Shown piece after piece: positions 37,336 to 52,604 of a stretch of DNA of 64,000 bases. The notes beneath the pieces are model-generated. The model did no database searches, was not told where the DNA came from, and worked only from the letters and a program-made list of their open reading frames with translations. Each line of letters begins with the position of its first letter. Position 1 is the first letter of the stretch. This DNA comes from an uncultured Thermoleophilia bacterium. GTDB taxonomy: Bacteria; Actinomycetota; Thermoleophilia; UBA2241. The position numbers were made by a program, and so were the translations under genes. The stretch covers positions 17,655-81,654 of the forward strand of contig CAWEHE010000007.1 in NCBI GenBank assembly GCA_963808735.1, in the 5' to 3' direction.

Positions 37336-38633
37336 TGAGTTCGACGATCACCGAGAAGATCCTCGCTCGCGCCGCGGGGCGCGACGAGGTCCACGCCGGC
37401 GACATCATCGAGGCGAAGGTCGACCTCGCGCTGGCCAACGACATCACCGCGCCGCTGGCGATCGCCGAGTTCGAGAAGGCCGGGTTCACCAAGGTCTGGG
37501 ACCCGGCCCGCATCGCCCTCGTGCCCGACCACTTCGCGCCCAACAAGGACATCAAGGCGGCGGGCCAGGCGGCGAAGATGCGCGACTTCGCCCGCAAGCA
37601 CGAGATCGTCAACTACTTCGAGGTCGGGCGCATGGGCATCGAGCACGTGCTCCTGCCCGACACCGGCATGGTGGCGCCGGGCGACGTCGTCATCGGCGCC
37701 GACAGCCACACCTGCACCTACGGCGCCGTGGCCGCGTTCAGCAGCGGCGTCGGCAGCACCGACTTCGCCGCCGCCATGGCGTGGGGTCACGTGTGGCTGC
37801 GCGTGCCCGAGAGCATCAAGTTCGTGTACTCGGGCCGCCCACAGCAGTGGGTCACCGGCAAGGACCTGATGCTGCACACCATCGGCCTCATCGGCGTCGA
37901 CGGCGCCCTGTACCAGGCCATGGAGTTCACCGGCGAGGCCATCGAGACGCTGTCCATGGACGAGCGCTTCACCCTGTGCAACATGGCGATCGAGGCCGGC
38001 GGCAAGAGCGGCATCGTCGGCTTCGACGAGAAGACGACGCGGTACCTCCAGAGCCGGCCCGACGGCAGCCGCGCGCGCAGCGTGAGCAAGGTGTTCGCCA
38101 GCGATGCGGGCGCCGAGTACGCGCGCATCCTCGAGATCGACGCTTCCGCGGTGCAGCCGACCGTGAGCAAGCCGCACCTGCCCAGCAACACGGCCGCGGC
38201 GGCCGACTGCGGCGACATCACCATCGACCAGGTCGTCATCGGCAGCTGCACCAACGGCCGCCTCGAGGACCTGCGCCAGGCGGCGAGCATCCTGCGCGGC
38301 AAGAAGGTCCACCCGGACGTGCGCTGCATCATCCTGCCCGGCACCCAGCAGGTGAGCCTGGACGCCATCGCCGACGGCACCATGCAGACGCTCATCGAGG
38401 CCGGGTGCGCCTTCAGCACGCCCACCTGCGGCGCCTGCCTGGGCGGCCACATGGGCGTCCTGGCCGACGGCGAGCGCGCCGTGGCCACCACCAACCGCAA
38501 CTTCGTCGGGCGCATGGGCCACCCGGGCGCCGAGGTCTACCTGGCGAGCCCCTACGTGGCCGCGGCATCGGCGCTGGCCGGCCACGTCGCCACGCCCGAA
38601 GAAGTCGGCGCGGACGCGGGAGGCTCGCGATGA
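37335..38633 (+). CDS. leuC: 3-isopropylmalate dehydratase large subunit (short, archaeal-type)
   Basis: Aconitase-family Cys ligands (GSCTNGR, CGACLG); 432 aa. Confidence 0.85.
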
Positions 38634-39133
38634 TCTTCGAGGGCACGGTCCACAAGTACGGCCGGGACGTCGACACCGACGTCATCATCCCGGCCCGCTA
38701 CCTCAACACCAACGACCCGGCGGAGCTCGCCAAGCACGCCATGGAAGACATCGACGCCGACTTCGTGAACCGGGTCCGGCCCGGTGACATCATCGTCGCC
38801 GACGAGAACTTCGGCTGCGGCAGCTCGCGCGAGCACGCGCCGGTCGCCATCAAGGAGTCCGGCGTGAGCGTCGTCGTCGCGGCGTCGTTCGCGCGCATCT
38901 TCTACCGCAACGCCATCAACACCGGGCTGCCGATCGTCGTGTGCCCGGCCGCGGCGGCGGACGCGAAGATGGGCGACCGCCTCAAGGCCGACCTGGCCGC
39001 CGGCACCGTGGAGAACCTGACGCAGGGCAAGACCTACGAGTCCGAGGCCTTCCCGCCGTTCATGCAGGAGCTCATCGACCGCGGCGGCCTGCTCGAGTAC
39101 GTCAAGACCCGCGTGAGCGGGCAAGGCGAGTGA
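38630..39133 (+). CDS. leuD: 3-isopropylmalate dehydratase small subunit
   Basis: Aconitase swivel domain; ATG overlaps leuC stop. Confidence 0.85.
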
Positions 39134-39177
39134 CGACAGACACACTGCACACGCATCCAGCATCGGAGAGAAGGACA

Positions 39178-40260
39178 ATGGGCAAGACCTACAAGATCGC
39201 GGTGATGCCGGGCGACGGCACCGGGCCCGAGGTGGTAGTCGAGGGAGTCAAGGTCCTGCAGGCGGCCGCCGCCAAGCACCGGTTCGGGCTCGACCTCACG
39301 CACTACGACCTGGGCGGCGAGCGTTACCTGGCCACCGGCGAGATCCTGCCGGAGTCGGTGCTCGACGAGCTCAGGGAGTTCGACTCGATCTACCTGGGCG
39401 CCATCGGGCACCCGGACGTCGCGCCGGGCATCCTGGAGAAGGGCCTGCTCCTCCAGTTGCGCTTCGAGCTGGACCAGTACATCAACCTGCGTCCCGTGCG
39501 GCTCTACCCCGGCGTCGAGACCCCGCTCAAGGACAAGGGCCCCGCGGACATCGACTACGTCGTGGTCCGCGAGAACTCCGGCGACGTGTACGCCGGCGGC
39601 GGCGGCGCCATGATGCCGGGCTCGCCGCACGAGGTCGCCACGCAGATCATGGTGTACAGCCGCGCCCAGGTGGACCGCTGTCTGCGCTGGGCGTTCCAGT
39701 ACGCGCGCCAGCACGGCAAGAAGGCGCGCGGCGTCGGCGACGACAACACCCTCGGCCTGGTCGGCAAGACCAACGTGCTCACCTACGTGTACGACCTCTG
39801 GTTCCGCGCCTTCAACGAGATCGGCGAGGCGGAGTTCCCGGACGTCAAGCGCGAGTACTACCACGTGGACGCCACCTGCATGTGGATGGTCAAGAGCCCG
39901 GAGTGGTTCGACGTGCTGGTGACCGGCAACATGTTCGGCGACATCATCACCGACCTCGGCGCGATCACCCAGGGCGGCATGGGCGTCGCCGCCGGCGGCA
40001 ACATCAACCCCGAGGGCGTCAGCATGTTCGAGCCCATCGGCGGGTCGGCCCCCAAGTACACCGGCATGGGCGTCATCAACCCCGTGGCCGCCATCGCGGC
40101 CGGCGCGATGATGCTCGAGACGCTGGGTGAGGACCAGGCGGCGCAGGACGTCGAGCACGCGATCACCGAGGTGACCGGCACCAGGATGAAGAGCATGGCC
40201 TCCGGCCAGATGGGCTACTCGACGAGCGAGGTCGGCGACCTCGTGGCCGAGCGCGTCTGA
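39178..40260 (+). CDS. leuB: 3-isopropylmalate dehydrogenase
   Basis: Isocitrate/isopropylmalate dehydrogenase family (MPGDGTGPEV, NMFGDIITD). Confidence 0.8.
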   Translation: MGKTYKIAVMPGDGTGPEVVVEGVKVLQAAAAKHRFGLDLTHYDLGGERYLATGEILPESVLDELREFDSIYLGAIGHPDVAPGILEKGLLLQLRFELDQYINLRPVRLYPGVETPLKDKGPADIDYVVVRENSGDVYAGGGGAMMPGSPHEVATQIMVYSRAQVDRCLRWAFQYARQHGKKARGVGDDNTLGLVGKTNVLTYVYDLWFRAFNEIGEAEFPDVKREYYHVDATCMWMVKSPEWFDVLVTGNMFGDIITDLGAITQGGMGVAAGGNINPEGVSMFEPIGGSAPKYTGMGVINPVAAIAAGAMMLETLGEDQAAQDVEHAITEVTGTRMKSMASGQMGYSTSEVGDLVAERV

Positions 40261-40343
40261 CCGGTGCGGGAGGCTCCACCAGCCAAGGTCGTAGAGGTCG
40301 AAGCTGCCGCGCGGAGCCCGCGCGAGAGGACAGGAGGAAGACG

Positions 40344-41267
40344 ATGGCCCCGATCCCCGAGATGGACACGATCTGGATGGACGGCCGGCTGGTCCCGTGG
40401 GCCGACGCCAAGATCCACGTGCTCACGCACGCGCTGCACTACGGCTCGGGGGTCTTCGAGGGCATCCGCGCCTACAAGACCGATCGCGGCGCGGGCGTGC
40501 TGCGTCTGGAAGAGCACCTCAAGCGCCTGGTGCGCTCGGCCAAGCTCTACTACATGCCCGTGCCGTACAGCGTCGAGGAGCTCTACGACGCCACGTTCGA
40601 GGTGCTGGAGTCCAACAAGCTCGACGCCGGTTACATCCGCCCGCTGATCTTCCGCGGCTACGGCGAGATGGGCCTGAACCCGATGGACGCGCCCGTGCAG
40701 GCCGTCATCGCGGCGTGGCCGTGGGGCACCTACCTCGGCGAGGAGGGCGTGCTGCACGGCGTGCGCGCCAAGACCTCCAGCATCCAGTCGCTCGACCACA
40801 CGGCGCTGGCCCGCGCCGCCAAGGCCACGGGCCAGTACCTCAACAGCATCCTCGCCAAGATCGAGGTGCTCAACGCCGGCTACGACGAGGCGATCATGCT
40901 CACCGAGCACGGCCACGTGGCCGAGGGCTCGGGCGAGAACATCTTCGTCGTGCGTGGCGGCGTGCTCATGACGCCGCCGCCGAGCGACGGCGTCCTTGAG
41001 GGCATCACCCGCGACATCGTCATGAACCTGGCGAAGAGTGAGGGCATCGAGCTGCGCGAGCGTACGCTCTCGCGCAGCGACCTCGTGATCGCCGACGAGT
41101 TGTTCTACACGGGCACCGCTGCCGAAGTCGTGCCGATCCGCGAGGTCGACGACCACCTCATCGGCGAGCCCGGGCCGGTGACGCGGCGCATGCAGGAGCG
41201 GTTCAAGGCCATCACCGAAGGTCGCGATGAGGAGTTCGGCGGCTACATGGAGTACGCCAGGAAGTAG
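40344..41267 (+). CDS. ilvE: Branched-chain amino acid aminotransferase (class IV)
   Basis: Fold-type IV PLP enzyme (EGSGENIFVV, GITR). Confidence 0.75.
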   Translation: MAPIPEMDTIWMDGRLVPWADAKIHVLTHALHYGSGVFEGIRAYKTDRGAGVLRLEEHLKRLVRSAKLYYMPVPYSVEELYDATFEVLESNKLDAGYIRPLIFRGYGEMGLNPMDAPVQAVIAAWPWGTYLGEEGVLHGVRAKTSSIQSLDHTALARAAKATGQYLNSILAKIEVLNAGYDEAIMLTEHGHVAEGSGENIFVVRGGVLMTPPPSDGVLEGITRDIVMNLAKSEGIELRERTLSRSDLVIADELFYTGTAAEVVPIREVDDHLIGEPGPVTRRMQERFKAITEGRDEEFGGYMEYARK

Positions 41268-41298
41268 CGATCCGGCAGTCCGGCGCGGGGAGGACCCG

Positions 41299-42876
41299 AT
41301 GCACGAGCGGCAGGTACAGCTGTACGACACGACGCTCCGCGACGGCATGCAGCAGGAGGGCATGTCGGTCTCGGTCGACGAGAAGGCGCGCATCGCGCTC
41401 AAGCTCGACGAGCTGGGCATCGGCTTCATCGAGGGCGGCTTCCCGGCCTCCAACCCCAAGGAGATCGAGTTCTTCCGCAGGATGCGCGACGAGCGGCTGG
41501 AGAACGCGGAGCTCGTCGCCTTCGGCATGACCCGGCGCAAGGGCGTGCCGGCGGAGGCCGACGACAGCCTGCGCGTGCTCGCCGAGATCTTCACGCCCAC
41601 GGTCGCCATCGTCGGCAAGACCTGGGGCCTGCACCTCAGCAAGGTCATCCGCGTGAGTCGGGACGAGAACCTGCGCATGATCGACGAGTCGGTCCGCTTT
41701 CTCACGACGCAGGGCAAGCGCGTCGTGTACGACGCGGAGCACTTCTTCGATGCGTGGCGCGACGACCGCGCGTACGCGTTGCGCTGCGCGACCGCGGCCG
41801 CCGAGGCGGGCGCCGCGGTCGTCTGCCTCTGCGACACCAACGGGGCGTCGCTGCCGCCGTTCGTCGCGGACGTCGTCCGCGAGGTCACGGCGGCGCTGCC
41901 CGGCGCACTCGTCGGCATCCACGCGCACAACGACAGCGACTGCGCCGTCGCCAGCAGCCTCGAGGCCGTCGGGGCCGGCGCCCGCCACGTGCAGGGCACG
42001 ATGAACGGGTACGGCGAGCGCTGCGGAAACGCCAACCTCGTGAGCATCATCCCGGCGCTCCAGCTCAAGATGGGCTACCCAGTGGTGAGCGACGGGCAGC
42101 TCGAGCGCCTCACCGAGACGTCGCACTTCGTCGCCGACGTGGTCAACGCGGCCATCTGGGCGCACGCGCCCTACGTGGGCCGCTCCGCCTTCGCCCACAA
42201 GGGCGGCATGCACGTCGCCGCCGTGGAGAAGGCGCCGCAGACGTTCGAACACGTCGACCCTGCGAGGGTGGGCAACGAGCAGCGCATCGTCGTCTCCGAG
42301 CTCTCGGGCAAGGGCGCGGTGGTGCGCAAGGCGCAGGAGCTCGGGCTGCGGCTCGAGGGTGACGACGCCCGCGTGGCGACCGTGCTCAGGCGCCTCAAGA
42401 CCCGCGAGCACGAGGGCTACCACTACGAGGCCGCCGACGCCTCGTTCGACCTCCTGCTGCGCGAGGAGCTCGCGCCACACGAGCCGCTGTTCCGCCTCGA
42501 GAGCTTCCGCGTGATCGTCGAGAAGCGCGAGGACGGCAAGGCCGTCGTGGAGGCGACCATCAAGATCCACGTGGGCGGCGAGCGCATCATCAGCACCGCC
42601 GAAGGCAACGGCCCCGTGAACGCCATGGACGCCGCCCTGCGGCAGGCGATCGTGAGCAAGTACCCGCACCTGGCCGACATCGAGCTCGTCAACTACAAGG
42701 TGCGCATCCTCGACGAGAACAAGGGCACCGGCGCCGTCACCCGGGTGCTGCTCGACGCCAGCGACGGCGACGACACCTGGGGCAGCATCGGCGTGAGCGA
42801 GAACATCATCGAGGCGAGCTGGGAGGCCCTGGTCGACTCGATCGAGTTCGGGATGCTGCGCGGCCGGGAGGCGTGA
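41299..42876 (+). CDS. cimA: (R)-citramalate synthase (LeuA-family type 2)
   Basis: LYDTTLRDGMQQEG and EGGFPASNPKEIEFF N-terminus, HAHNDSDCAVA, LeuA_dimer C-terminal domain; 525 aa. Confidence 0.7.
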   Translation: MHERQVQLYDTTLRDGMQQEGMSVSVDEKARIALKLDELGIGFIEGGFPASNPKEIEFFRRMRDERLENAELVAFGMTRRKGVPAEADDSLRVLAEIFTPTVAIVGKTWGLHLSKVIRVSRDENLRMIDESVRFLTTQGKRVVYDAEHFFDAWRDDRAYALRCATAAAEAGAAVVCLCDTNGASLPPFVADVVREVTAALPGALVGIHAHNDSDCAVASSLEAVGAGARHVQGTMNGYGERCGNANLVSIIPALQLKMGYPVVSDGQLERLTETSHFVADVVNAAIWAHAPYVGRSAFAHKGGMHVAAVEKAPQTFEHVDPARVGNEQRIVVSELSGKGAVVRKAQELGLRLEGDDARVATVLRRLKTREHEGYHYEAADASFDLLLREELAPHEPLFRLESFRVIVEKREDGKAVVEATIKIHVGGERIISTAEGNGPVNAMDAALRQAIVSKYPHLADIELVNYKVRILDENKGTGAVTRVLLDASDGDDTWGSIGVSENIIEASWEALVDSIEFGMLRGREA

Positions 42877-43014
42877 GTGGTGGGACAGCTGCGCCCGGCG
42901 CATCGTCGAGCATCCGGAGGCCTGCGCTTCGCCGCTGTCAGTCCTCGCGGGGAGTGACCGGGGCTTTCCTGGGCCGGCAGGACCATTCCGACCTCCCAGG
43001 GCGGCAGCGGCGCA

Positions 43015-43518
43015 TCACGTGCGGGGCGCGGAACCGGTCCCGGCCGTGTCTACAGGTGGCTTGGGAGCGGCCTGGCCGGGTCCTTCAGCGCGGGTCTCGA
43101 CTGAGCAGTCCGGAGTGGTCTGGGACCGAAACACCCAGCGCGACGAAAGAAGGTAGTTGACGCAGAGGGCGCCGACTACGGCGGCGGCCTCGATGGCGTT
43201 CAGCGCGGTCGCGGAGAGGGCTGCTCCCCGCGACGGCGCGAGGGCGGCGTGCAGTGCGGCAAGGATCAACGTGCTCACGCCCAATGCGAGCGCGTTGACC
43301 ACCGCGAACCTCACGAGGGTCTCCGGCAGGGAGCCCGACTTTCGGTCGGCGAACGTCCAGAGTCGGTTCCAGAAGAACGAGTTGGCGAAGCCAGCCGCCC
43401 ATCCTGCCGCATTCGCCCACAGCGGCGGAACGCCAAGTCCGAGGGCCGCGAGATTGAACACTGCGAGAGTGACCGCGGTATTGACTGCGCCAACGATGGC
43501 GAACTTCACGAAGCGCAC
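43015..43518 (-). CDS. GtrA-family membrane protein
   Basis: MRFVKFAIVGAVNTAVTLAVFNL...; 4 predicted TM helices. Confidence 0.7.
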   Translation of the reverse strand: MRFVKFAIVGAVNTAVTLAVFNLAALGLGVPPLWANAAGWAAGFANSFFWNRLWTFADRKSGSLPETLVRFAVVNALALGVSTLILAALHAALAPSRGAALSATALNAIEAAAVVGALCVNYLLSSRWVFRSQTTPDCSVETRAEGPGQAAPKPPVDTAGTGSAPRT

Positions 43519-43597
43519 GCCGCCTCCAGTAGAGAAGTCCTCCCGAGCGGTGCAATACTACACACTCGCATGGCGTGGGAACGCAGATCGGGAGACG

Positions 43598-44320
43598 ATG
43601 GACGAGGCGCTGTTGCTCAGCTTCGCGCAGGTGGAGAGAGCGCACTGGTGGTTTGTTGTGCGCCGCCGCCTTGTGCTCGAGCAGGCGAGGCGCTGGGCGC
43701 CGCCGCACCTTGAGGAGATCCTCGAAGTTGGCAGCGGCACAGGGGCCACGCTGCGCGACCTTGGCGCTTGCTTCCCGGGCGTGACCGTCAGGGGTGTGGA
43801 ACCATCCCCTGCGGCTCGGCAGGTCGCCGCCGCCGCGGGTTCCCAGGTCGTGGCCGGGTCGTTCGAGCAGCTGCCGATCGCCACCGACACGATCGATATG
43901 CTGCTGGCTCTCGATGTGCTCGAGCACCTGGACGACGATAGCGTCGGGCTCCTCGAGGCCGCACGCGTTCTTCGGCCGGGCGGCCGTCTCATCCTGACGC
44001 TGCCGGCGCTGCCGGCGCTGTGGGGACCGCACGACGACCTGAACGGGCATCGACGCCGGTACTCTCGTGCTGCGGTCCGCGAACGCACGCTCGCCGCAGG
44101 TTTCGGAATCGAGCGACTGACCTCCTTCAATACAGTACTGCTGCCCTTGGCAGTCGGCGAACGCTCAGTCGCCCGGCTTCGCGGCAGAGTCTCCCCAGTC
44201 ACGGAGCCGGCGCCTCTGGTGAATGAAATCCTGCTGCGCGCTTTCGCGCTCGAACTGCACGTATTGCGCAAGACCGACCTGCCCATCGGGCTGTCGCTTC
44301 TGCTGGTAGCGACACGGTGA
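43598..44320 (+). CDS. Class I SAM-dependent methyltransferase
   Basis: Motif I ILEVGSGTGA and post-I LDVLEHLDD (Methyltransf_11/23-like). Confidence 0.7.
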   Translation: MDEALLLSFAQVERAHWWFVVRRRLVLEQARRWAPPHLEEILEVGSGTGATLRDLGACFPGVTVRGVEPSPAARQVAAAAGSQVVAGSFEQLPIATDTIDMLLALDVLEHLDDDSVGLLEAARVLRPGGRLILTLPALPALWGPHDDLNGHRRRYSRAAVRERTLAAGFGIERLTSFNTVLLPLAVGERSVARLRGRVSPVTEPAPLVNEILLRAFALELHVLRKTDLPIGLSLLLVATR

Positions 44321-45348
44321 GTTGCGTGGAGTCAGGAGGCGCCGGTCGGCCGCTGCACTCCGTCGTCGCGCCCGTGTTCAATGAGGCCGATGGCATCCTG
44401 GCGTTTCACGAACGGTGCACCTCCGCCATGTCGCCGATTGGGGACGCGTACGAGATCATCTACGTCGACGACGGGAGCCGCGACGAATCGTGGTCACGCC
44501 TCTTGGCGATCGGCGAACGTGATCCGCACGTGCGTCTCGTTCGCCTGTCGCGCAACTTCGGTCACCAGATCGCCATCTCGGCTGGGATCGAGCATGCCTT
44601 CGGCGACACCGTGACGGTGATCGACAGCGACCTCCAGGACCCGCCGGAGACCATCACAGCCATGGTCGATTGCTGGCGTGGTGGAGCGGACATCGTCTAT
44701 GGCCTTCGCGCGGTCAGGCACGGCGAAACCTGGTTCAAGCGGGGGACCGCATCGTTGTTCTACCGCGTGTTGAAGCACCTCTCCGACATCGAGATCCCTG
44801 TGGATGTGGGTGATTTCAGGCTCCTGAGCCGCCGGGCCAGGGACGGGCTGGTGGCGATGCCCGAGCACCACAGGTACGTGCGCGGCATGGTCGCATGGCT
44901 GGGGTACGAGTCGGCGACGGTCGCCTATGAAAGGGATCCGCGCTCCGCCGGTGAGACGAAGTACCCGCTTGCCAAGATGATGCGGTTCGCGCTGGACGGG
45001 ATCCTGTCGTTCTCGATCCGGCCGTTGCGCATCGCCACCTGGATCGGGGTGCTGACCTCCATCGCCGCGATCGTGACCGCCTTCATCCTCATCTTCCTAC
45101 GCCTGTTGGGCGACGTCCCCGTGCAGGGCTGGACCTCACTGGCAGTCTTGGTCCTTCTCACCTCCGGCGTGCAGCTCGTCACCATCGGCGCGCTGGGTGA
45201 GTACATCGGACGCATCTGGACGGAGGTTCGAGGGAGGCCTCTGTACCTTGTGCGTGCGACGCGTGGATTCGCGCCCCGGGAGCGCCCGGACGAGGAGCCG
45301 AGCGCCGGTCGCCTAGCGGGGGACGAGGACAACGAGAGGCGTGGATGA
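44317..45348 (+). CDS. GT2 polyprenol-phosphate sugar transferase (GtrB/ArnC/Ppm-like)
   Basis: GT-A with DDGSRD and DSDLQD motifs plus two C-terminal TM helices. GTG overlaps the methyltransferase stop. Confidence 0.75.
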   Translation: MSCVESGGAGRPLHSVVAPVFNEADGILAFHERCTSAMSPIGDAYEIIYVDDGSRDESWSRLLAIGERDPHVRLVRLSRNFGHQIAISAGIEHAFGDTVTVIDSDLQDPPETITAMVDCWRGGADIVYGLRAVRHGETWFKRGTASLFYRVLKHLSDIEIPVDVGDFRLLSRRARDGLVAMPEHHRYVRGMVAWLGYESATVAYERDPRSAGETKYPLAKMMRFALDGILSFSIRPLRIATWIGVLTSIAAIVTAFILIFLRLLGDVPVQGWTSLAVLVLLTSGVQLVTIGALGEYIGRIWTEVRGRPLYLVRATRGFAPRERPDEEPSAGRLAGDEDNERRG

Positions 45349-46947
45349 GTCGACGACCCGATAGTCTCGCTTGAGGGCCGCGACCAGCGGATCCGCTGGC
45401 GCGCCGGGTTCCAGCAGGCCGTGCGAGACGAAGGCGACGTCAGGCCAGGAGCGTCGGTCGAAGTACTCCACGGCGTAGTGGTCCGAGGGTCCACGGGCGA
45501 GCCATGCGGCGTTTGTCGTGATGTCGCCCCCGGCAAGCAGATAGGCGAGCGGGGCGTTGAAGACAAGCACTCGGTCGTCTGGCCGGACCCACCGTCGGGC
45601 CACGTCTTGGACAGCCTCGATCTTCGCCGCTTGCTCATCTGAGGTGGCGATGCCAGCAAGCGGACCAGTCGTGAAGCGATGGTCGAGTCGGAGCGGCGCT
45701 CCCTCTTTGAAGGAGACGCTCCAGAGCAGGAACACGGCGATGAAGGCGACACTCACGGCGGCCGCGATGAGAAGCCAGCGGCCGCAGTCGACCCTCAGGA
45801 TCGATGCCCACGCGACGAGGACGGCGACGGTGAGCGGCGCCAGCCCCGTATACGCCACATCCCAACTCCAGCCGGATCGCGTCATGACCGCGACGATCAC
45901 CCAGTTGACCATGGCCATAGGCGCCGCGAGAAGGAGCAGGCGTCTGATGTCGTGGTGCTTTCCTCGAGCGGCCCGGACGATGACCGCGGGCAGGATCCCC
46001 AGGGTGCTCAGGGTGAGCCACGCCGTCCCGATGCTGAACCAGAGGTCACGCTGTCCGCGGGTCAGCGCGTCCGGGATGAGCTGGCGGAACGCGGCCAGCG
46101 GAACCAGGGCAAGCACGATGGCGCGCCAGCGAGGACGCATCCACGGCAAGCAGGCGATCGCGGAGAGCAGCCACATGAGCAGCAGCCAATCGCGCGTCAG
46201 GGTCTTGCGCAGACGTCGCATCACGATCGAGGCACGCTGGAGCGGGGATCGCGCCGACTGCCAGATCTCGCCCGAGTAGGCCAGTGCCTGCCGGACGTCG
46301 TGAGCGGAGACGGTGACCGCGAGCCACGCGACGACGACGAGACCCGATGCCGCGCCGCCGACGACGAACCACACGAGGAGACGCCGGTCGCTGGTGGTGA
46401 GGGCGAACGTGATCGCGAAGATGAGGGCTCCGACGCTGAGGGGAGGGTACGACAGCGCGCCGATGAACGCGGCGACGCCCGCGGCGGCAGCCTTGGCGCG
46501 ATTGCCGTCACGTTGTGCCGCGAAGCCGAGAGCGGTCGCCGCAGACAACGCGAGGATCGCAGACGTGTTGTAGCTCACCCCGATGATGTTGTACGGGGGT
46601 GCGAGCAGGGGTACCCAAGCCCCGAGGCCCGCGACCAGTGCACCGAACGACGGGCGCAGGGACCGGTAGATCACGTAGCCGACTGCGATCGCGAGCGCGA
46701 TGTAGAAGAGGCGCAGAGCGAGGACGATCCCCGTCGTGCCGAACAGCGCGGTCCACACCCGCGTGAACGGCACGGCTGCGAGGAAGCCCAGGGCCTGCGA
46801 CGTCATCTCATCTGCGAAGACACGCGCACCGTGCGCGAGGCGCAGGGTGATGACCGCGTAGTGGGCATCGTCGACGAACGTGATGCCGTAGGTTGCCCGC
46901 CATGCGGTGAGAAGGCCCAATGCCGCGACGGTGACGACCACGGTCAT
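45313..46947 (-). CDS. GT-C fold integral-membrane glycosyltransferase (ArnT/PMT-like)
   Basis: ~13 predicted TM helices; FVDDAHY acidic motif in the first extracytoplasmic loop; C-terminal soluble domain. Start could extend to 47056. Confidence 0.5.
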   Translation of the reverse strand: MTVVVTVAALGLLTAWRATYGITFVDDAHYAVITLRLAHGARVFADEMTSQALGFLAAVPFTRVWTALFGTTGIVLALRLFYIALAIAVGYVIYRSLRPSFGALVAGLGAWVPLLAPPYNIIGVSYNTSAILALSAATALGFAAQRDGNRAKAAAAGVAAFIGALSYPPLSVGALIFAITFALTTSDRRLLVWFVVGGAASGLVVVAWLAVTVSAHDVRQALAYSGEIWQSARSPLQRASIVMRRLRKTLTRDWLLLMWLLSAIACLPWMRPRWRAIVLALVPLAAFRQLIPDALTRGQRDLWFSIGTAWLTLSTLGILPAVIVRAARGKHHDIRRLLLLAAPMAMVNWVIVAVMTRSGWSWDVAYTGLAPLTVAVLVAWASILRVDCGRWLLIAAAVSVAFIAVFLLWSVSFKEGAPLRLDHRFTTGPLAGIATSDEQAAKIEAVQDVARRWVRPDDRVLVFNAPLAYLLAGGDITTNAAWLARGPSDHYAVEYFDRRSWPDVAFVSHGLLEPGAPADPLVAALKRDYRVVDSSTPLVVLVPR

Positions 46948-47340
46948 CACCTCGCGTCGCCGCGCCCTGACTGACTGCGAGGAACCGGGTGATGCCGCAG
47001 TCGGAGATGACTCAGCGGTAGGACTTGCCCTCTCGGAATCGCGCGGTTCGGGCATATGACTCCATTCGATCTGGAACGTTGGGGGATGATACATCGGCGA
47101 CCATGCAGGGGTCGGGAGAGCTGCGCCCGTCAGCCCCATGGCCGTGCCTTGGGATGCGACGACCTCTTGGAGGTACGTCAGGCCGACCTCGCTGTCTGTG
47201 AGCATGGTGTTCGACGCGGTCGATCCCTCGCCGCGCCCCCAGGGCTCTCGTCTGCCGTTGGCATCGCACTCGCCGCCGGCCGCTCTGCATCCGGCACGTA
47301 CGCTCCCGAGACGACACGGGGTGCTAGAATCCGGCCACCG

Positions 47341-50300
47341 ATGACCCCCGACTTCGTCCATCTCCACGTGCACAGCGAGTACTCGCTGCTCGACGGCGCC
47401 TGCCGCGTGATGCAGCTCGTCCAAAGGGCGAAGGAACTGGGCATGCCGGCCGTGGCCCTCACCGACCACGGCACGCTCGGCGGCGCCGTGAAGTTCTACC
47501 GCGCCGCCCAGGAGGAGGGCATCAAGCCCATCATCGGCCTCGAACTCTACGTCGCCACCGACCGACACAGCCGCGCCGGCGTCAAGGAGAAGAACGCCCA
47601 CCTCACGCTGCTCGCCCGCGACGAGGCCGGCTACAAGAACCTCGTCAAGCTCTCGACCACGGCCTATCTCGAAGGCTACTACTACAAGCCGCGTGCCGAC
47701 TGGGAGCTCCTCAGCCAGTATCACGAGGGCCTCATCGCGCTCACCGGCTGCATGAGCGGCAAGACGTCGATGCTGCTCCGCGACGGCGACGACACGGCCG
47801 CCCTGGCCGAGGTCACCCGGCTCGCCGAGCTGCTCGGCCCCGAGAACGTCTACGTCGAGCTCCAGGACGCCGGCCTGCCCGAGCAGCGCGAGCTGCTGCC
47901 GAAGCTCGCGCAGCTCGCCGAGAAGGCCGGCCTCAAGACCGTCGCCACCAACGACGTCCACTACCTGCGGCACGAGGACGCGTACGCGCACGACGCGCTT
48001 CTCTGCATCCAGACGCAGAGCAACATCGCCGACGAGAAGCGCATGCGCTACGGCAGCGACGAGTTCTACCTCAAGTCGGCGGACGAGATGTACGAGCGCT
48101 TCAAGGACTACCCCGGCGCCTGCGAGGCGACCGCCGAGATCGCCTCGCGCTGCGACGTCAGCCTCGACTTCGGTGACTACAAGCTGCCCACGTACCCTGT
48201 ACCGGACTGCTTCACCGAGGACAGCTATCTGCGCGAGCTGTGCGAGCAGGGCATCGCGCGCCGCTACGGCGGCGAGCCCGGCGCCGAGGTGATCGAGCGC
48301 CTCGACTTCGAGCTCGGGGTCATCGGTGAGATGGGGTTCGACGCCTACTTCCTGATCGTCTGGGACTACGTGAAGTTCGCCAAGGACAACGGCATCGCCG
48401 TCGGACCCGGCCGTGGGTCCGCCGCCGGGTCCATCGTCAGCTACGCGCTCGGCATCACCGACATCGACCCGCTCAAGTACGACCTGCTCTTCGAGCGCTT
48501 CCTCAACCCGGGGCGCAAGAGCATGCCCGACATCGACATGGACTTCAGCGTGGCCCGCCGCGAGGAGGTCATCGACTACGTGGCCGACAAGTACGGCCGC
48601 GACCGCGTCGCCCAGATCATCACCTTCGGCACCATGGCGGCGCGGGCGGCCGTGCGCGACGCCGCCCGCGTGCTGGGCAAGCCCTACGCCGCCGGCGACA
48701 AGATCGCCAAGATGATCCCCGAGCAGGCGCCGCCGGCGAGCTTCGAGGATGCGATGAAGCCGGGCTGCGAGCTCAGGCAGGCCTACGACGCCGACGAGGA
48801 GATCAAGGAGGTCGTCGACCTCGCCAGGAGCCTCGAGGGCCTCATCCGCAACGACTCCATCCACGCGGCCGCCGTGGTGATCAGCGACAAGCCCCTCACC
48901 GAGTACCTGCCGCTGCAGCAGAAGGGCGAGGCCGAGCTCGTCACGCAGTTCGACATGAACGACGTCTCCAAGCTCGGCCTGCTCAAGATGGACTTCCTCG
49001 GTCTGAGAAACCTCGACGTCATCGAGGCCGCGCTCGAGATCATCGAGAAGACGCGCGGTGTCTGCATCGAGATCGACCGGCTGCCGCTCGACGACGAGAA
49101 GACCTACAAGATGCTCGCGCGCGGCGACTCCACCGGGGTGTTCCAGTTCGAGAGCCCCGGCATGAAGGAGGCGCTGCGCGACATCGGCCCCACGGAGTTC
49201 GAGGACCTCATCGCCATCGTCGCCCTGTACCGGCCGGGGCCGATGCAGTACATCCCGACGTATGCGCGCAACAAGAAGGACCCGGCTTCGGTCGTCTACG
49301 ACCACGAGTCTCTGCGCCCCATCCTGGAGCCGACCCACGGCGTGACCATCTACCAGGAGCAGTACATGGCCATCGCCCGCCGGGTCGGCGGCTTCAGCCC
49401 GGCCCAGGCGGACGATCTGCGCAAGGCCATCAGCAAGAAGAACCACCAGCTGATGGCCACCCTCAAGGAGCCCCTGATGGGAGGCCTCGCCGAGCAGGGC
49501 GTGCCGCCGGCGGTCGCCAACAAGATGTGGGCCAACTTCGAGGCCACCGGCGACTACTCGTTCAACAAGAGCCACGCCGCCTGCTACGCGCTGATCAGCT
49601 ACCGCACCGCCTGGCTCAAGGCCAACTACCCGGTCGAGTACATGGCGGCCCTGGTCTCGAGCGTGATGAGCACCAAGGACAAGGTGCCGTTCTACGTCAA
49701 CCAGTGCCACGAGATGGGCATCGAGGTGCTGCCTCCGGACGTCAACACGAGCCTCGTCGAGTTCACCGTGGTGGAGGGCAAGATCCGCTTCGGCATGAAC
49801 GCCGTGAAGGGCGTCGGCGTCGGCGCCATCGAAGCCATCGTCGCGGCGCGCGACGAGGGCGGACCGTTCGAGTCGGTCTTCGACTTCTGCGCCCGCGTCG
49901 ACTCGCAGATGGCCAACAAGCGCGTGCTCGAGGCGCTCGTCCGCAGCGGCGCGTTCGACAGCACCGGCGACCCGCGCCGCGGCATGATCGAGGTGCTCCC
50001 CCTGGCGATGTCCGACGGGGAGCGCAAGCGCAAGGACGCGGCCAACGGTCAGGGCGGGCTCTTCGACGCCGCCCCGTCTGAGGACGGCGGCCACCCGCGT
50101 CCCACGGTGCCGCAGGTCGAGTGGGACCAGGCGACCTTGCTGCGCTACGAGAAGGAGGCCCTCGGCCTGTACGTCTCGGCGCACCCGTTGCAGGGCCTGC
50201 GCGAGCAGTTGCACGACGAGATCGAGGTCCCCGTGGCTCAGCTCGACCGCGTCGGCGACGGGGCGGTCACCTGGACGGGCGGCATCGTCACGAGCGCGCA

Positions 50301-50754
50301 GAAGAAGGTCAGCAAGAACGGCGGCGTGTGGCTCGCGTTCCGCCTCGAGGACATCGACGGCGGCATCGAGTGCCGCGCCTGGCCCAAGGTCTACGAGCAG
50401 AACCGGGAGCTCCTCGCCGAGGACGCCATCATCAAGGTCAAGGGCCGCATCGAGCGCCGCGCCGAGGGCGACAGCATGCTGGCCGCCATCGAGGTCGTGC
50501 CGTTCAACGGCGTGAGCGAGTACCATCCGCTCACCGTGGTGATCGACGCCGCCTGCGTGCCGCCCACGGTCATCGACGACCTGCGAAGGGTGCTGACCGA
50601 CTTCCCCGGCCAGGTGCCCGTGGTGCTGCAGATGGTGCGCGGCGACGAGCGCGCCAGGCTGCGCGTCGGCGATGGGCTGCGGGTGGATCCCGTCGCCGGT
50701 CTGTACGCCGAGCTCAAAGCGTTGCTCGGGGAGAGCTGTATCGGGGTCGGCTGA
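47341..50754 (+). CDS. dnaE: DNA polymerase III alpha subunit
   Basis: PHP domain HLHVHSEYSLLDGA, polymerase core and OB fold; 1137 aa. Confidence 0.9.
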   Translation: MTPDFVHLHVHSEYSLLDGACRVMQLVQRAKELGMPAVALTDHGTLGGAVKFYRAAQEEGIKPIIGLELYVATDRHSRAGVKEKNAHLTLLARDEAGYKNLVKLSTTAYLEGYYYKPRADWELLSQYHEGLIALTGCMSGKTSMLLRDGDDTAALAEVTRLAELLGPENVYVELQDAGLPEQRELLPKLAQLAEKAGLKTVATNDVHYLRHEDAYAHDALLCIQTQSNIADEKRMRYGSDEFYLKSADEMYERFKDYPGACEATAEIASRCDVSLDFGDYKLPTYPVPDCFTEDSYLRELCEQGIARRYGGEPGAEVIERLDFELGVIGEMGFDAYFLIVWDYVKFAKDNGIAVGPGRGSAAGSIVSYALGITDIDPLKYDLLFERFLNPGRKSMPDIDMDFSVARREEVIDYVADKYGRDRVAQIITFGTMAARAAVRDAARVLGKPYAAGDKIAKMIPEQAPPASFEDAMKPGCELRQAYDADEEIKEVVDLARSLEGLIRNDSIHAAAVVISDKPLTEYLPLQQKGEAELVTQFDMNDVSKLGLLKMDFLGLRNLDVIEAALEIIEKTRGVCIEIDRLPLDDEKTYKMLARGDSTGVFQFESPGMKEALRDIGPTEFEDLIAIVALYRPGPMQYIPTYARNKKDPASVVYDHESLRPILEPTHGVTIYQEQYMAIARRVGGFSPAQADDLRKAISKKNHQLMATLKEPLMGGLAEQGVPPAVANKMWANFEATGDYSFNKSHAACYALISYRTAWLKANYPVEYMAALVSSVMSTKDKVPFYVNQCHEMGIEVLPPDVNTSLVEFTVVEGKIRFGMNAVKGVGVGAIEAIVAARDEGGPFESVFDFCARVDSQMANKRVLEALVRSGAFDSTGDPRRGMIEVLPLAMSDGERKRKDAANGQGGLFDAAPSEDGGHPRPTVPQVEWDQATLLRYEKEALGLYVSAHPLQGLREQLHDEIEVPVAQLDRVGDGAVTWTGGIVTSAQKKVSKNGGVWLAFRLEDIDGGIECRAWPKVYEQNRELLAEDAIIKVKGRIERRAEGDSMLAAIEVVPFNGVSEYHPLTVVIDAACVPPTVIDDLRRVLTDFPGQVPVVLQMVRGDERARLRVGDGLRVDPVAGLYAELKALLGESCIGVG

Positions 50755-50784
50755 GGCCGGCCGGAGCGGGGAGGAGGACGCACG

Positions 50785-51984
50785 ATGATCCCGGAGGGTA
50801 TGCGCGACGTGCTTCCGCCCGAGACGGGCCGGCTGCGAGCGGTCGAGGATGGGCTGCGCGCGCGCTTTGCCTCCTACGGATACGGCGAGGTGCGCACGCC
50901 GTGGCTCGAGTTCGCCGGGACGCTCGAGGCCGCCGAGGACGACACGCTCGCCGCCGGCTACCGCCTCCACGACGAGCGGGGCCACGAGCTCATGGTCCGC
51001 ACCGACATGACCGTCCCGGTGGCCCGCATGGCCGCCGACCGCTGTGACGACGACCCGCTGCCGTTGCGCTTCTCCTACGTCGCCCCGAGCATCCGCCCGT
51101 GGGCGCCCCAGCGTGGCCAGGACGGCGAGTTCCTGCAGGCGGGGGCCGAGCTGCTGGGCCTGGACTCGGCCGGCGCCGACGCGGAGTGCGTCACGCTGCT
51201 CTGTGACGCGCTGTCCGGCCTCGGCCTGCGCGACTTCACGGTCACCCTCGGCACGGTCGCCTTCCAGCGGGCGCTCATCGACTCCCTCGGCCTGTCGGCG
51301 GACGACCGGGAGACCTTCACCGAAGCGCTCGCCGAGCGGGACTACCCGCTCGTCGAGAGCATCGCCGGCAACGCCGAGGTCGATCAGCGGGCGCTCACGG
51401 CGCTCTGGCGCATCCTCGAGCTCAGCGGGGGCGAGGACACGCTGGCGCAGGCGCGCAAGCTCGCGCGCAACGACGTCATGGAGGCCGCCGTGGCGCGCCT
51501 CGCCCAGGTGCGCGATCTCGTCGAGGAGGCGGGCCACGGCGCGCGCCTGGCCTTCGATTTCGGGCTGATGCAGGACCTCACGTACTACACGGGACTCATC
51601 GTGGAGGCCTACGCCCCGGGCGTGGGTCTGCCGCTGGCATCCGGCGGTCGCTACGACAGCCTGCTCGGGCGCTTCGAGTGGGACATCCCCGGCGTCGGCT
51701 TCGCGATCGCCGTGGACCGTGCCGCGGACGCGCTGGACGAGGCAGGCGTGGAGCTGCGCGGCGCGCCCGAGGCGATCGCGTTCCCCGGCGGCCTCGAGTC
51801 GCCGGCGCGGGCGGCGGAGCTGCGCCGCGCCGGTATCGCCGTGCGCGCGCTGCCGGAGGACGCCGCCGGCGTGGAGCCGCCGCTGCTGCGGCGGCGCGGC
51901 GGCTCCTTCGTCCTGCGGCTCGCCGACGGCCGCGAGGTCGCGGGCGGGGCCCGCGAGATCGCCGAGGCGCTGGAGGCGGGATGA
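50785..51984 (+). CDS. hisZ: ATP phosphoribosyltransferase regulatory subunit (HisRS paralog)
   Basis: MIPEGMRDVLPPE is the typical HisZ N-terminus; class-II aaRS-like core without anticodon-binding domain; directly precedes short-form hisG. Confidence 0.8.
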   Translation: MIPEGMRDVLPPETGRLRAVEDGLRARFASYGYGEVRTPWLEFAGTLEAAEDDTLAAGYRLHDERGHELMVRTDMTVPVARMAADRCDDDPLPLRFSYVAPSIRPWAPQRGQDGEFLQAGAELLGLDSAGADAECVTLLCDALSGLGLRDFTVTLGTVAFQRALIDSLGLSADDRETFTEALAERDYPLVESIAGNAEVDQRALTALWRILELSGGEDTLAQARKLARNDVMEAAVARLAQVRDLVEEAGHGARLAFDFGLMQDLTYYTGLIVEAYAPGVGLPLASGGRYDSLLGRFEWDIPGVGFAIAVDRAADALDEAGVELRGAPEAIAFPGGLESPARAAELRRAGIAVRALPEDAAGVEPPLLRRRGGSFVLRLADGREVAGGAREIAEALEAG

Positions 51985-52604
51985 GGATCGGGATCGCCTG
52001 TGACGGCGAGCCGCCTCCAGCCGAGCTCCTGGACCTCCTCGAGGCGGCCGGCCTGCCCGCCGCCCTGCTGCGCGGGCGACGTCCGCCGGCGCTGCTGCCC
52101 GACGGGGGCGGCGTGTGGCTGCTCGCAGCGGGCAGTGACGTGCTCCGCGCCTGCGACCGCGGGGGGCTCGATCTCGGCGTCGTCGGCCGCGATCTCCTGC
52201 TCGAAGGCCGCCGCGGCGCGGCCGACTTGCTGGACCTGCGCTGCTGTCGCGACGAGCTCGTCTACGCCGTGACGGCCGCCGCGGACCGCCCCGGACGCAG
52301 GCTCCGCGTGGCCACTCGTCACCCCGAGACGACGCTTCGCCACTTCGCCGCGGCGGGTCTGCAGCCGGAGATCATCACCCTGGACGAGCCGGCGCTCGCG
52401 CCGGCGCTGGGGCTCGCCGACGGCGTGGTGGAGCTGGGCTCGCGCCTTGCCGTGGGCGCCCCGGGCGCTCCGCCTCTGGAGGTGCGAGCGGTCGTCGCCG
52501 CCTGCAGCGCCCGGCTCGTCGCCGCGCGGGCCGCACGCGTGCTGCGCCGGGGCGACATCGACGCGCTCGTCAAACGCCTGCGTGCTGCCCTGGAGGACCG
52601 ATGA
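51981..52604 (+). CDS. hisG: ATP phosphoribosyltransferase, short form
   Basis: 207 aa; ATGA overlap with hisZ. Confidence 0.75.
   Translation: MRIGIACDGEPPPAELLDLLEAAGLPAALLRGRRPPALLPDGGGVWLLAAGSDVLRACDRGGLDLGVVGRDLLLEGRRGAADLLDLRCCRDELVYAVTAAADRPGRRLRVATRHPETTLRHFAAAGLQPEIITLDEPALAPALGLADGVVELGSRLAVGAPGAPPLEVRAVVAACSARLVAARAARVLRRGDIDALVKRLRAALEDR

Follow-up and report, generated by a model that had tools for sequence, protein, structure and literature searches.

A four-gene cassette for a probable Gtr/Arn-type extracytoplasmic glycosylation pathway with a coupled methyltransferase in an uncultured Thermoleophilia bacterium

Four neighboring genes of an uncultured Thermoleophilia bacterium probably encode an extracytoplasmic glycosylation pathway of the Gtr/Arn type, in which a methyltransferase (MT) would tailor a lipid-linked sugar before it is flipped. 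The genes are found at positions 43015-47055 of the window, that is, the whole stretch of 64,000 nucleotides that was analysed. They encode a GtrA-family protein, a class I SAM-dependent methyltransferase, a GtrB-type GT2 and a GT-C glycosyltransferase. The cassette thus contains the parts of a three-component system: a GT2 synthase with a DxD motif, a GtrA-family flippase candidate and a polytopic GT-C with an acidic motif. O-antigens, teichoic acids and mycobacterial lipoglycans are shaped by extracytoplasmic glycosylation from polyprenyl phosphate (Pren-P) sugars, as is drug resistance via Arn. The sugars of the described systems are either unmodified or tailored by deformylation or epimerisation. 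Methylation does not take place outside the cell because SAM is absent there. A conserved MT joined to a lipid-sugar synthase would explain methylated side-branch sugars at the surface, and a methylated lipid-linked sugar would offer glycoengineers a new type of donor. If the MT methylates Pren-P-hexose, the cassette would be a four-component route to extracytoplasmic O-methyl sugars that has not been described before. The basic scheme is well known; the family of the final transferase and the built-in methyltransferase are not described before. The significance is moderate, since the general logic was already known and the bacterium that carries the genes is uncultured. The analysis further delimits an ArnT-like GT-C family in which a DD motif and a C-terminal domain are both conserved.

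The GtrA-family gene (43015-43518, minus strand) is divergent from an MT-GT2 operon. The 79 bp between them (43519-43597, read from the sequence) are presumably the site of promoters in both directions; no sigma-70 consensus site was found in this interval, which is a weak test in an actinobacterial-type genome of 69% GC. The MT gene (43598-44320, plus strand) encodes a soluble protein of 240 aa. Its true start is the ATG at 43598, with GGGAG just upstream, and the start at 43157 of the listed open reading frame was rejected, as it lies antisense within gtrA. The GT2 gene (44317-45348, plus strand) encodes a GT-A fold protein of 343 aa. Its start overlaps the MT stop as GTGA at 44317-44320, and the GTGA overlap given in the original prediction is thereby confirmed in the sequence. 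The GT-C gene (45313-47055, minus strand) is convergent with the GT2 gene, and their 3' ends overlap by 36 bp. It encodes 580 aa from the ATG at 47055. A divergent intergenic region of 285 bp (47056-47340), in which no Rfam family was found, separates it from dnaE. The true start of dnaE is the ATG at 47341; the protein read from there is covered by the NCBIfam DnaE model from residue 2-3 onward. The cassette is flanked by leuB-ilvE-cimA on one side and by dnaE-hisZ-hisG on the other. A four-gene module had been predicted between cimA and dnaE, and all four genes are present there at essentially the predicted positions.

The GT-C gene comprises the 3' 580 codons of an open frame of 2074 codons that extends over the whole of dnaE on the opposite strand. 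This arrangement invites the reading that the GT-C frame is a non-coding by-product and that the module has three genes only, which we regard as practically excluded. Coding-type GC3 (0.84) is seen only in the GT-C part (45313-46947), whereas the part antisense to dnaE has a mirror pattern (GC1 0.965, GC3 0.67). Homologues form 35 clusters at 37-100% identity, a profile search gave 2770 hits, and the GT-C fold is confident. An artefact of the antisense frame was rejected on the strength of these homologues, the coding-type composition and the fold. A public gene call (P0001) starts the gene at the GTG at 46941 (542 aa). The RRRE stretch before the first transmembrane segment (TM1) is kept in 79%-identical homologues, and the ATG at 47055 is therefore favored. 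The predicted FVDDAHY motif is present after TM1. Its DD lies nine residues past TM1, and among 30 homologues D26 and D27 show a conservation of at least 90%. RARRRE at the N-terminus places this end in the cytoplasm by the positive-inside rule, and the DD loop would then lie outside the cytoplasm. The original prediction had 13 TM segments; hydropathy gives eight strong ones, and the structure model shows 19 helices up to residue 408. These are followed by a conserved C-terminal alpha/beta domain of ~135 residues.

The GtrA-family protein (167 aa, 3-4 hydrophobic segments) matches PF04138 GtrA_DPMS_TM with an E-value of 1.8e-26 (93 bits against a cut-off of 26). It is a putative flippase or helper for a polyprenyl-phosphate-sugar; the flippase function of GtrA-family proteins is only proposed so far (PMC11127046). 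The GT2 matches PF00535 (E 1.5e-30). It aligns without gaps to Synechocystis GtrB (PDB 5EKP), a structurally defined Pren-P glucosyltransferase (PMC12690121), with 44% identity over 303 residues (15-317; E 3.4e-87), and also matches ArnC (E 1e-42). Its DSDLQD motif aligns with 94-DADLQD-99 of GtrB, and its GDFRL with the segment of GtrB that probably contains D157 (GtrB numbering from PMC12690121, residue assignment by the present analysis). Two hydrophobic or TM segments (243-261 and 275-293) are at the C-terminus. The GT2 is below the NCBIfam equivalog cut-offs of PgfS (262 bits against 500) and ArnC (160 bits against 529), and hence its sugar specificity is not assignable.

The MT belongs to an 'HWWF' subfamily of soluble class I SAM-dependent methyltransferases. 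It matches Methyltransf_11/12/25/23 of Pfam (E 7e-17 to 8e-12) and combines a Rossmann-like class I fold with motif I (GxGxG) for SAM binding. Neither a signal peptide nor a TM segment was found in it. The fold is of the type of small-molecule methyltransferases. Beyond the SAM motifs it has several invariant Arg and His residues, which would suit an anionic substrate. Its structural neighbors are too generic to point to sugar O-methyltransferases in particular: they include sugar and lipid methyltransferases together with polyprenyl-quinone and isoprenoid-diphosphate enzymes (Coq5, UbiG and the GPP/FPP C-methyltransferases). No NCBIfam equivalog cut-off was passed, the best being the DVU_1556 family (54 bits against 155). 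The one line of evidence that suggests a sugar substrate is the linkage of the MT gene to that of the GT2. The identities originally given to the GtrA-family protein, the MT and the GT2 are borne out by sequence matches in Pfam or the PDB, and that of the GT-C by a fold that matches ArnT and other GT-C enzymes with high confidence.

The relatives of the cassette are found in Actinomycetota MAGs. GT-C, GT2 and MT genes are adjacent in at least nine distinct loci (L001, L005, L009, L010, L012, L013, L018, L045 and L046), which lie in three different neighborhoods (dnaE/his, cbb3 oxidase/cytochromes, and others). GtrA was detected in seven of the nine, and its homologues, 49-73% identical, occupy the same position in L001, L005, L009, L010, L012, L045 and L046. 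L013 and L018 have another gene order and no GtrA match. A check of gene co-occurrence had been proposed with the original prediction, and it found that the genes stay linked in relatives whose GT-C proteins are 41-79% identical and whose neighborhoods vary. The tight coupling of MT and GT2 is kept across loci as an overlap of 4 bp or 8 bp or a gap of 2 bp; no MT-GT2 fusion was found. The pairing extends beyond the cassette. In 37 metagenome loci an MT homologue has at least 1.1 kb of flank to either side, and in 21 of these a GtrB-like GT2 lies within 300 bp of it. MT-GtrB pairs occur in both gene orders and also convergently, and are seen from Actinomycetota to Sphingomonadales. The large membrane protein beside the pair varies between loci. 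L042 has the GtrA/MT-GT2 layout with a different GT-C family (PF04188), L043 has the same layout with a PMT_2 protein, and L044 has an MT-GT2 pair without an adjacent large membrane protein. Several families of large membrane proteins seen beside MT-GtrB pairs are without a Pfam model.

These data are combined in the following scheme. The GT2, anchored by its two C-terminal TM helices, would load polyprenyl phosphate with a hexose-type sugar, donated by a nucleotide sugar, at the cytoplasmic face. The MT, made from the same coupled message, would methylate the lipid-linked sugar while it still faces the cytoplasm; the nucleotide precursor is a less likely substrate. Methylation is placed on the cytoplasmic side because SAM is available only in the cytoplasm. 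The GtrA-family protein may then move the lipid-linked sugar to the outer leaflet, where the GT-C would use the conserved DD motif after TM1 to transfer it to an envelope acceptor. Candidate acceptors include a glycopolymer, a lipoglycan or a protein. ArnD of the Arn pathway sets a precedent for the tailoring of a lipid-linked sugar before flipping (PMC12690121). With the three-component core working as proposed, the MT may instead act on the acceptor or its cytoplasmic precursor, as in a chain-terminating methylation of the WbdD type (PMC11127046), on a nucleotide sugar or on an unrelated lipid or quinone, and be co-transcribed for co-regulation. We regard this as somewhat unlikely. The quinone and isoprenoid methyltransferases among its structural neighbors would suit it. 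So would the 16 of the 37 well-flanked loci (about 43%) that lack a nearby GtrB-like GT2, and the Cupriavidus plasmids in which MT homologues adjoin a PAP2 phosphatase and a lipid A phosphoethanolamine transferase. Both findings show that Pren-P-sugar synthases are not the invariable partners of this MT family. However, the pairing is specific to the GT2: it survives a change of family in the large membrane neighbor and persists in L044, and the stop/start overlap is conserved. In addition, neither the cassette nor its three neighborhoods contain acceptor-synthesis genes. Methylation of the lipid-linked sugar remains our preferred reading. A broader proposal is offered tentatively, as one that is possible but has the balance somewhat against it: the 'HWWF' MT would methylate polyprenyl-phosphate-hexose in the cytoplasm and form, with GtrB-type synthases, a widespread four-component route to O-methyl sugars in which the final membrane partner is interchangeable. 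That partner is a confirmed GT-C in three cases (the GT-C family of the cassette, PF04188 and PMT_2).

The GtrA/GtrB/GtrC systems of Shigella and Salmonella phages likewise consist of a GtrB-family synthase, a GtrA protein and a polytopic GT-C that are encoded together. In Gtr cassettes the sugar comes from a monophosphoryl lipid and is added on the extracytoplasmic side (PMC11127046). The likeness to Gtr and Arn systems in the original prediction holds for the mechanism but not for a prophage Gtr cassette, nor is the GT-C a GT83, GT39 or PMT_2 protein by curated thresholds. In contrast to phage Gtr cassettes, the present genes are without prophage context, lie on both strands (gtrA divergent, GT-C convergent) and include a translationally coupled methyltransferase. 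The GT-C is unrelated in sequence to the GtrC type, with a weak GtrII match in only one of 30 family members, and the host is an uncultured Actinomycetota-like bacterium, not an enterobacterium. It is very improbable that the cassette is the remnant of a prophage serotype-conversion (gtrABC) module. The GC3 of the four genes (0.77-0.84) does fall well below that of every core gene of the window (0.93-0.97), and an imperfect direct repeat of 16 nt brackets the cassette. Yet about 11 such repeats are expected by chance in the region, and this one is absent from all 127 loci fetched, the syntenic L045 included. No tRNA (in 38000-53000), integrase or phage gene was found; the flanks are leuB-ilvE-cimA and dnaE-hisZ-hisG. 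In a relative whose GT-C is 79% identical, the cassette sits at this same position. The genes differ in order and strands from the one-direction gtrA-gtrB-gtrC, and no match to the GT-C was found in plasmids.

The cassette differs from the ArnC/ArnD/ArnE-F/ArnT system in its tailoring enzyme (a SAM methyltransferase, where Arn has a deformylase) and in its flippase candidate (GtrA-type, where Arn has the ArnE/F pair), and its proteins miss the curated thresholds of ArnC and ArnT. Lipid A would not be expected in Actinomycetota, the phylum of the relatives, and the acceptor would therefore have to differ from that of Arn. The same three protein classes make up CsbB/GtcA/YfhO and GtlA/GtcA/GtlB, whose targets are teichoic acids and secondary wall polysaccharides (PMC8035078). 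Unlike the genes of the present cassette, theirs are often dispersed. A methyltransferase is part of none of the described Gram-positive multi-component systems, and the word 'methyl' is absent from the review that covers them (PMC8035078). In mycobacteria, the GtrB-like synthase MtxS (Rv0539) makes a decaprenyl-P-linked donor that bears a methyl group and the GT-C MtxT transfers it outside, in the methylthioxylose capping of lipoarabinomannan (PMC12088412, PMC11127046). This likeness is by description only, and the methyl group comes ready-made from methylthioadenosine, so that no SAM-dependent methyltransferase is needed. AglP of Haloferax volcanii N-glycosylation is a SAM-dependent methyltransferase in the assembly of a lipid-linked (dolichol phosphate) glycan (PMC3871713). 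It is comparable by role; it is archaeal and acts on an oligosaccharide in an oligosaccharyltransferase (AglB) pathway, whereas the cassette would be a Gtr-type side branch with a monosaccharide.

The GT-C belongs to an ArnT-like family of ~2770 representative clusters without a characterised member; none was found in homologue, PDB and profile searches, and the PDB profile search gave no match at E <= 10. The classification by HMM that had been proposed was run, and the curated thresholds of GT39 and GT83 were not reached. Membership in ArnT/GT83, PMT/GT39 and PMT_2 was rejected because the sequence scores below the curated cut-off (PMT_2, PF13231: 15.9 bits against a gathering cut-off of 26.1), and the protein is filed as ArnT-like in fold only. 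Weak PMT_2 matches are nevertheless found in 24 of 30 family members (best E 2.2e-07), with two of ten family representatives above the cut-off. One clade of the family sits between ispE and ksgA-rpfB-tatD, a region that we take to be near pmt in mycobacteria. Both observations would suit PMT-type O-glycosylation of secreted or membrane proteins by the GT-C. This is a reading of the acceptor only, compatible with the pathway proposed above, and we consider it unlikely. Structurally the protein comes closest to ArnT, which modifies lipid A and is not a PMT, and neither a MIR domain nor any other hallmark of PMTs was detected. GT-C proteins that modify glycopolymers, such as GtlB of Listeria, can carry PMT_2 domains as well (PMC8035078). 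More distant members of the family lie among NTP-transferases, epimerases and GT2s in clusters of the polysaccharide type. In L007, L008, L016 and L017, more distant members stand without an adjacent MT or GT2.

The four-gene cassette lies between cimA (citramalate synthase, 41296-42876) and dnaE (47341-50754), both identified by NCBIfam equivalog matches. Because the GC content of the window is ~69%, long spurious open reading frames abound; genes were delimited by codon-position GC together with homology. The gtrA gene (43015-43518, minus strand) scores 93 bits with PF04138, whose cut-off is 26. The methyltransferase (MT) gene (43598-44320) starts at ATG 43598, has GGGAG upstream, and matches the Methyltransf_11, 12, 25 and 23 families. 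It is followed by a GtrB-type polyprenyl-phosphate glycosyltransferase (GT2) gene (44317-45348), which starts with GTG and matches PF00535. The MT stop codon (TGA) and the GT2 start codon (GTG) overlap within GTGA (44317-44320). The fourth gene encodes a membrane glycosyltransferase (GT-C); its 3' end (45313) overlaps that of the GT2 gene convergently by 36 bp. A scan for promoter and terminator consensus sequences gave nothing useful; that no sigma-70 consensus site turned up says little for an actinobacterial-type genome of 69% GC. An Rfam search of 42000-48000 found no family. The C-terminus of GtrA (43015-43119) is a Pro/Ala/Thr-rich tail of ~35 residues that is kept in the 167-residue homologue of the syntenic closest relative (L045) and absent from 136-142-residue homologues (L001, L005).

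The GT-C gene makes up the final 580 of the 2074 codons in an open frame (45313-51537, minus strand) that spans all of dnaE in antisense, and it could have been an artefact of that frame. The GC content by codon position is coding-like in 45313-46947 (0.68/0.52/0.84), while the portion antisense to dnaE (0.965/0.40/0.67) is the mirror image of dnaE. This composition alone speaks against an artefact, which is therefore excluded; homologues of the protein also exist. The real gene in this frame comprises only its last ~580 codons, and the frame as a whole exemplifies the giant spurious ORFs created by high GC. An RARRRE motif encoded upstream of the first transmembrane segment (TM1) is kept in 79%-identical homologues, and therefore ATG 47055 is favoured as the GT-C start.

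The window GT-C protein has no above-threshold Pfam or NCBIfam match. PMT_2 (PF13231) is weakly matched by 24 of 30 homologues, and its cut-off is passed by only two of ten representatives; by curated criteria, the protein belongs to none of GT83, GT39 or PMT_2. A word-indexed search found 35 clusters of homologues (37-100% identity), the closest named relatives being Actinomycetota/Coriobacteriia MAGs, and plasmid records gave no match. An HMM scan of 1.84 billion representatives with the family profile yielded 2770 matches at E <= 1e-3 and 350 at E <= 1e-30, mostly full-length with the C-terminal domain included. The same profile has no match among all PDB sequences even at E <= 10, and by the PDB and profile searches no member of the family has been solved or characterised. 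From a 30-sequence alignment AlphaFold2 gave a confident model (pLDDT 90.8, pTM 0.91), and the first 31 PDB matches that this model retrieves with Foldseek are all GT-C enzymes. The fourth protein is thus, as modelled, a GT-C in fold and ArnT-like, in agreement with the original prediction. The acidic FVDDAHY motif that had been picked out in this protein is also borne out by the alignment: its aspartates D26 and D27, nine residues past TM1, are nearly invariant. They are followed by a conserved ADEMTxQxLGFL stretch and by invariant R79, P99, Y126, R146 and Y167. By the positive-inside rule the RARRRE stretch would place the N-terminus inside and the aspartate loop outside, as is the corresponding loop of ArnT, PMTs and PglB.

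The GT2 aligns with Synechocystis GtrB (5EKP) over residues 15-317 without gaps (44% identity, E 3.4e-87) and with ArnC at E 1e-42; its scores stay under the PgfS and ArnC equivalog cut-offs. Its DSDLQD motif corresponds to the metal-binding 94-DADLQD-99 of GtrB. Its GDFRL motif aligns with the GtrB segment that is thought, by our own residue assignment, to hold D157 (GtrB numbering), the proposed catalytic residue (PMC12690121). Hydrophobic segments 243-261 and 275-293 match the two C-terminal TM helices of GtrB. The earlier assignments of a GtrA-family protein, a SAM methyltransferase and a GT2 with C-terminal TM helices that is GTGA-coupled to the methyltransferase therefore all hold. The MT carries an N-terminal E-x2-HWWF-x2-RR signature followed by DVLEH, W-x2-HD-x4-H-x-RRY and a conserved C-terminal LPxGxS.

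Among the fetched loci of relatives (L001-L127), the arrangement GT-C> <GT2 <MT GtrA> is found again in five more species-level loci (L001, L005, L009, L010, L012), with identities of 41-47% for GT-C, 67-70% for GT2, 49-57% for MT and 49-54% for GtrA. In at least two of these (L001, L005) the cassette has a cbb3 oxidase operon on one side and multihaem cytochrome genes on the other, a neighbourhood wholly unlike that of the window. In L045 (79% identity) it adjoins dnaE, as it does in the window, and L046 also carries it. The order differs in L013 and L018 (<MT GT2> GT-C>), and in L014 only the GT2 lies beside the GT-C. The proposed linkage was upheld when co-occurrence was checked, with GT-C, GT2 and MT adjacent in 9/16 distinct actinobacterial loci. 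More distant GT-C homologues (L004, L007) lie within sugar-nucleotide and polysaccharide clusters. Two tandem paralogues, ~43% identical to the window protein, occur in L008 (7001-12217) and L015, where their neighbours are a third GT-C, of the PMT_2 type, and a gene resembling GT9 heptosyltransferases. Distant relatives of the GT-C family occur in Ruminococcus and other gut Clostridia (L021-L027); their identity of 24-32% is found chiefly in the N-terminal half. Six loci have a GtrB-like GT2 ~1.4 kb upstream, and MT homologues were not detected there. Three loci (L016, L017, L019) have no GT2, MT or GtrA within 8 kb of the GT-C homologue. In L017 (3516-14844), the one of the three whose neighbouring genes were scanned, the homologue (~40% identity) is flanked by ispE and ksgA-rpfB-tatD; glmU and prs are close by, and the adjoining gene encodes another protein, of 521 residues, without a Pfam match. 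In mycobacteria this conserved actinobacterial region is near pmt.

The GC3 of the four cassette genes is 0.77-0.84 compared with 0.93-0.97 in the other clearly coding genes of the 64-kb window, as would fit genes that were acquired horizontally or that belong to another expression class. The low GC3 together with the unrelated neighbourhoods in relatives suggests that the cassette moves as a unit. No tRNA, integrase or phage genes lie near it. A 16-nt imperfect direct repeat, GGGA(C/G)AGCTGCGCCCG, brackets the cassette from both flanking intergenic regions (42882-42897 and 47114-47129), and these are its only two copies in the window. It was rejected as evidence of insertion because it is absent from all 127 fetched loci, including the syntenic L045, and because about 11 repeats of this size arise by chance in the 4.75-kb region, which holds 11 repeat families of 14-18 nt. 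The repeat is probably due to chance.

The MT-GT2 pair extends beyond this GT-C family. Scanning metagenomes with the MT alignment brought up more than 535 MT relatives. Pairing was counted in the best 80 of these, of which 37 are flanked by 1.1 kb or more on each side. A full-length GtrB-like GT2 lies within 300 bp of the MT homologue in 21 of the 37 well-flanked loci: on the same strand upstream in nine, on the same strand downstream in six, convergent downstream in five and divergent upstream in one. The gaps are often 3-24 bp, and no fusion protein was found among 21 same-strand pairs checked. The membrane partner varies. In L042 the MT is 53% identical and the GtrA / MT-GT2 layout is kept, and the next gene encodes a PF04188 (GPI-mannosyltransferase-2-type) GT-C. 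The partner in L043 is a PMT_2 protein, and the L044 pair is without any large membrane partner. Elsewhere the neighbours of the pair are proteins of 500-600 residues with 8-12 hydrophobic segments. These proteins are without a Pfam match, form at least five unrelated families and carry acidic motifs (DTDDN, WLDEAYS, PPLxDL) directly past the first TM segment. When the GT-C profile was compared with three families of flanking membrane proteins by hhalign, probabilities were < 1%; the Pfam-less polytopic proteins may be undescribed GT-C families. Seven metagenomic loci with MT-GT2 pairs (L056, L062, L067, L074, L100, L110, L113), possibly alphaproteobacterial, have up to three different polytopic-protein families alongside. 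On a plasmid of Sphingobium sp. TomTYG71 (L127), a cultured carrier, the same overlapping GT and MT pair lies between such large membrane proteins.

The synthase, flippase and GT-C logic is established in Gtr, Arn and Gram-positive teichoic-acid systems (PMC11127046, PMC8035078, PMC13390465). It fits every feature tested in the cassette, and a three-component core is very probable. The MT is soluble and requires SAM, and therefore it acts in the cytoplasm. If the delivered sugar is its substrate, it would be modified as a nucleotide sugar or as a polyprenyl-phosphate (Pren-P)-linked sugar before flipping. The main rival explanation is that the MT modifies an acceptor precursor or another lipid. 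The pairing is widespread and specific to the synthase, not to any particular GT-C; translational coupling is conserved, and invariant Arg and His residues lie outside the SAM site. These features point to the GT2 product as the MT substrate. The MT would then act on that product at the cytoplasmic side, ahead of flipping. Methylation of the lipid-linked sugar is nonetheless a tentative assignment, to which we give somewhat less than an even chance. Tailoring at this point has a direct precedent in ArnD, which removes the formyl group from Und-P-Ara4FN after the ArnC step and before the flippase (PMC12690121), and AglP is an MT that takes part in a lipid-linked glycan pathway (PMC3871713). Mycobacterial methylthioxylose (Rv0539-Rv0541c) offers an analogy but does not explain the cassette, since a SAM MT is not the source of its methyl group.

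The overall glycosylation scheme is already well known. A full-text literature search found no described methyltransferase partner for GtrB/GT-C (Gtr-type) systems, and methylation is nowhere mentioned in the principal review on multi-component glycosylation systems (PMC8035078). An MT homologue of 34% identity occurs without a GT2 on the Cupriavidus sp. P-10 plasmid pMTS3 (L126, 96545-97423). It sits among czc-type metal-resistance genes and adjoins a lipid A phosphoethanolamine transferase and a PAP2 phosphatase, a setting that may point to another function, related to the envelope, in the Cupriavidus branch of the MT family.
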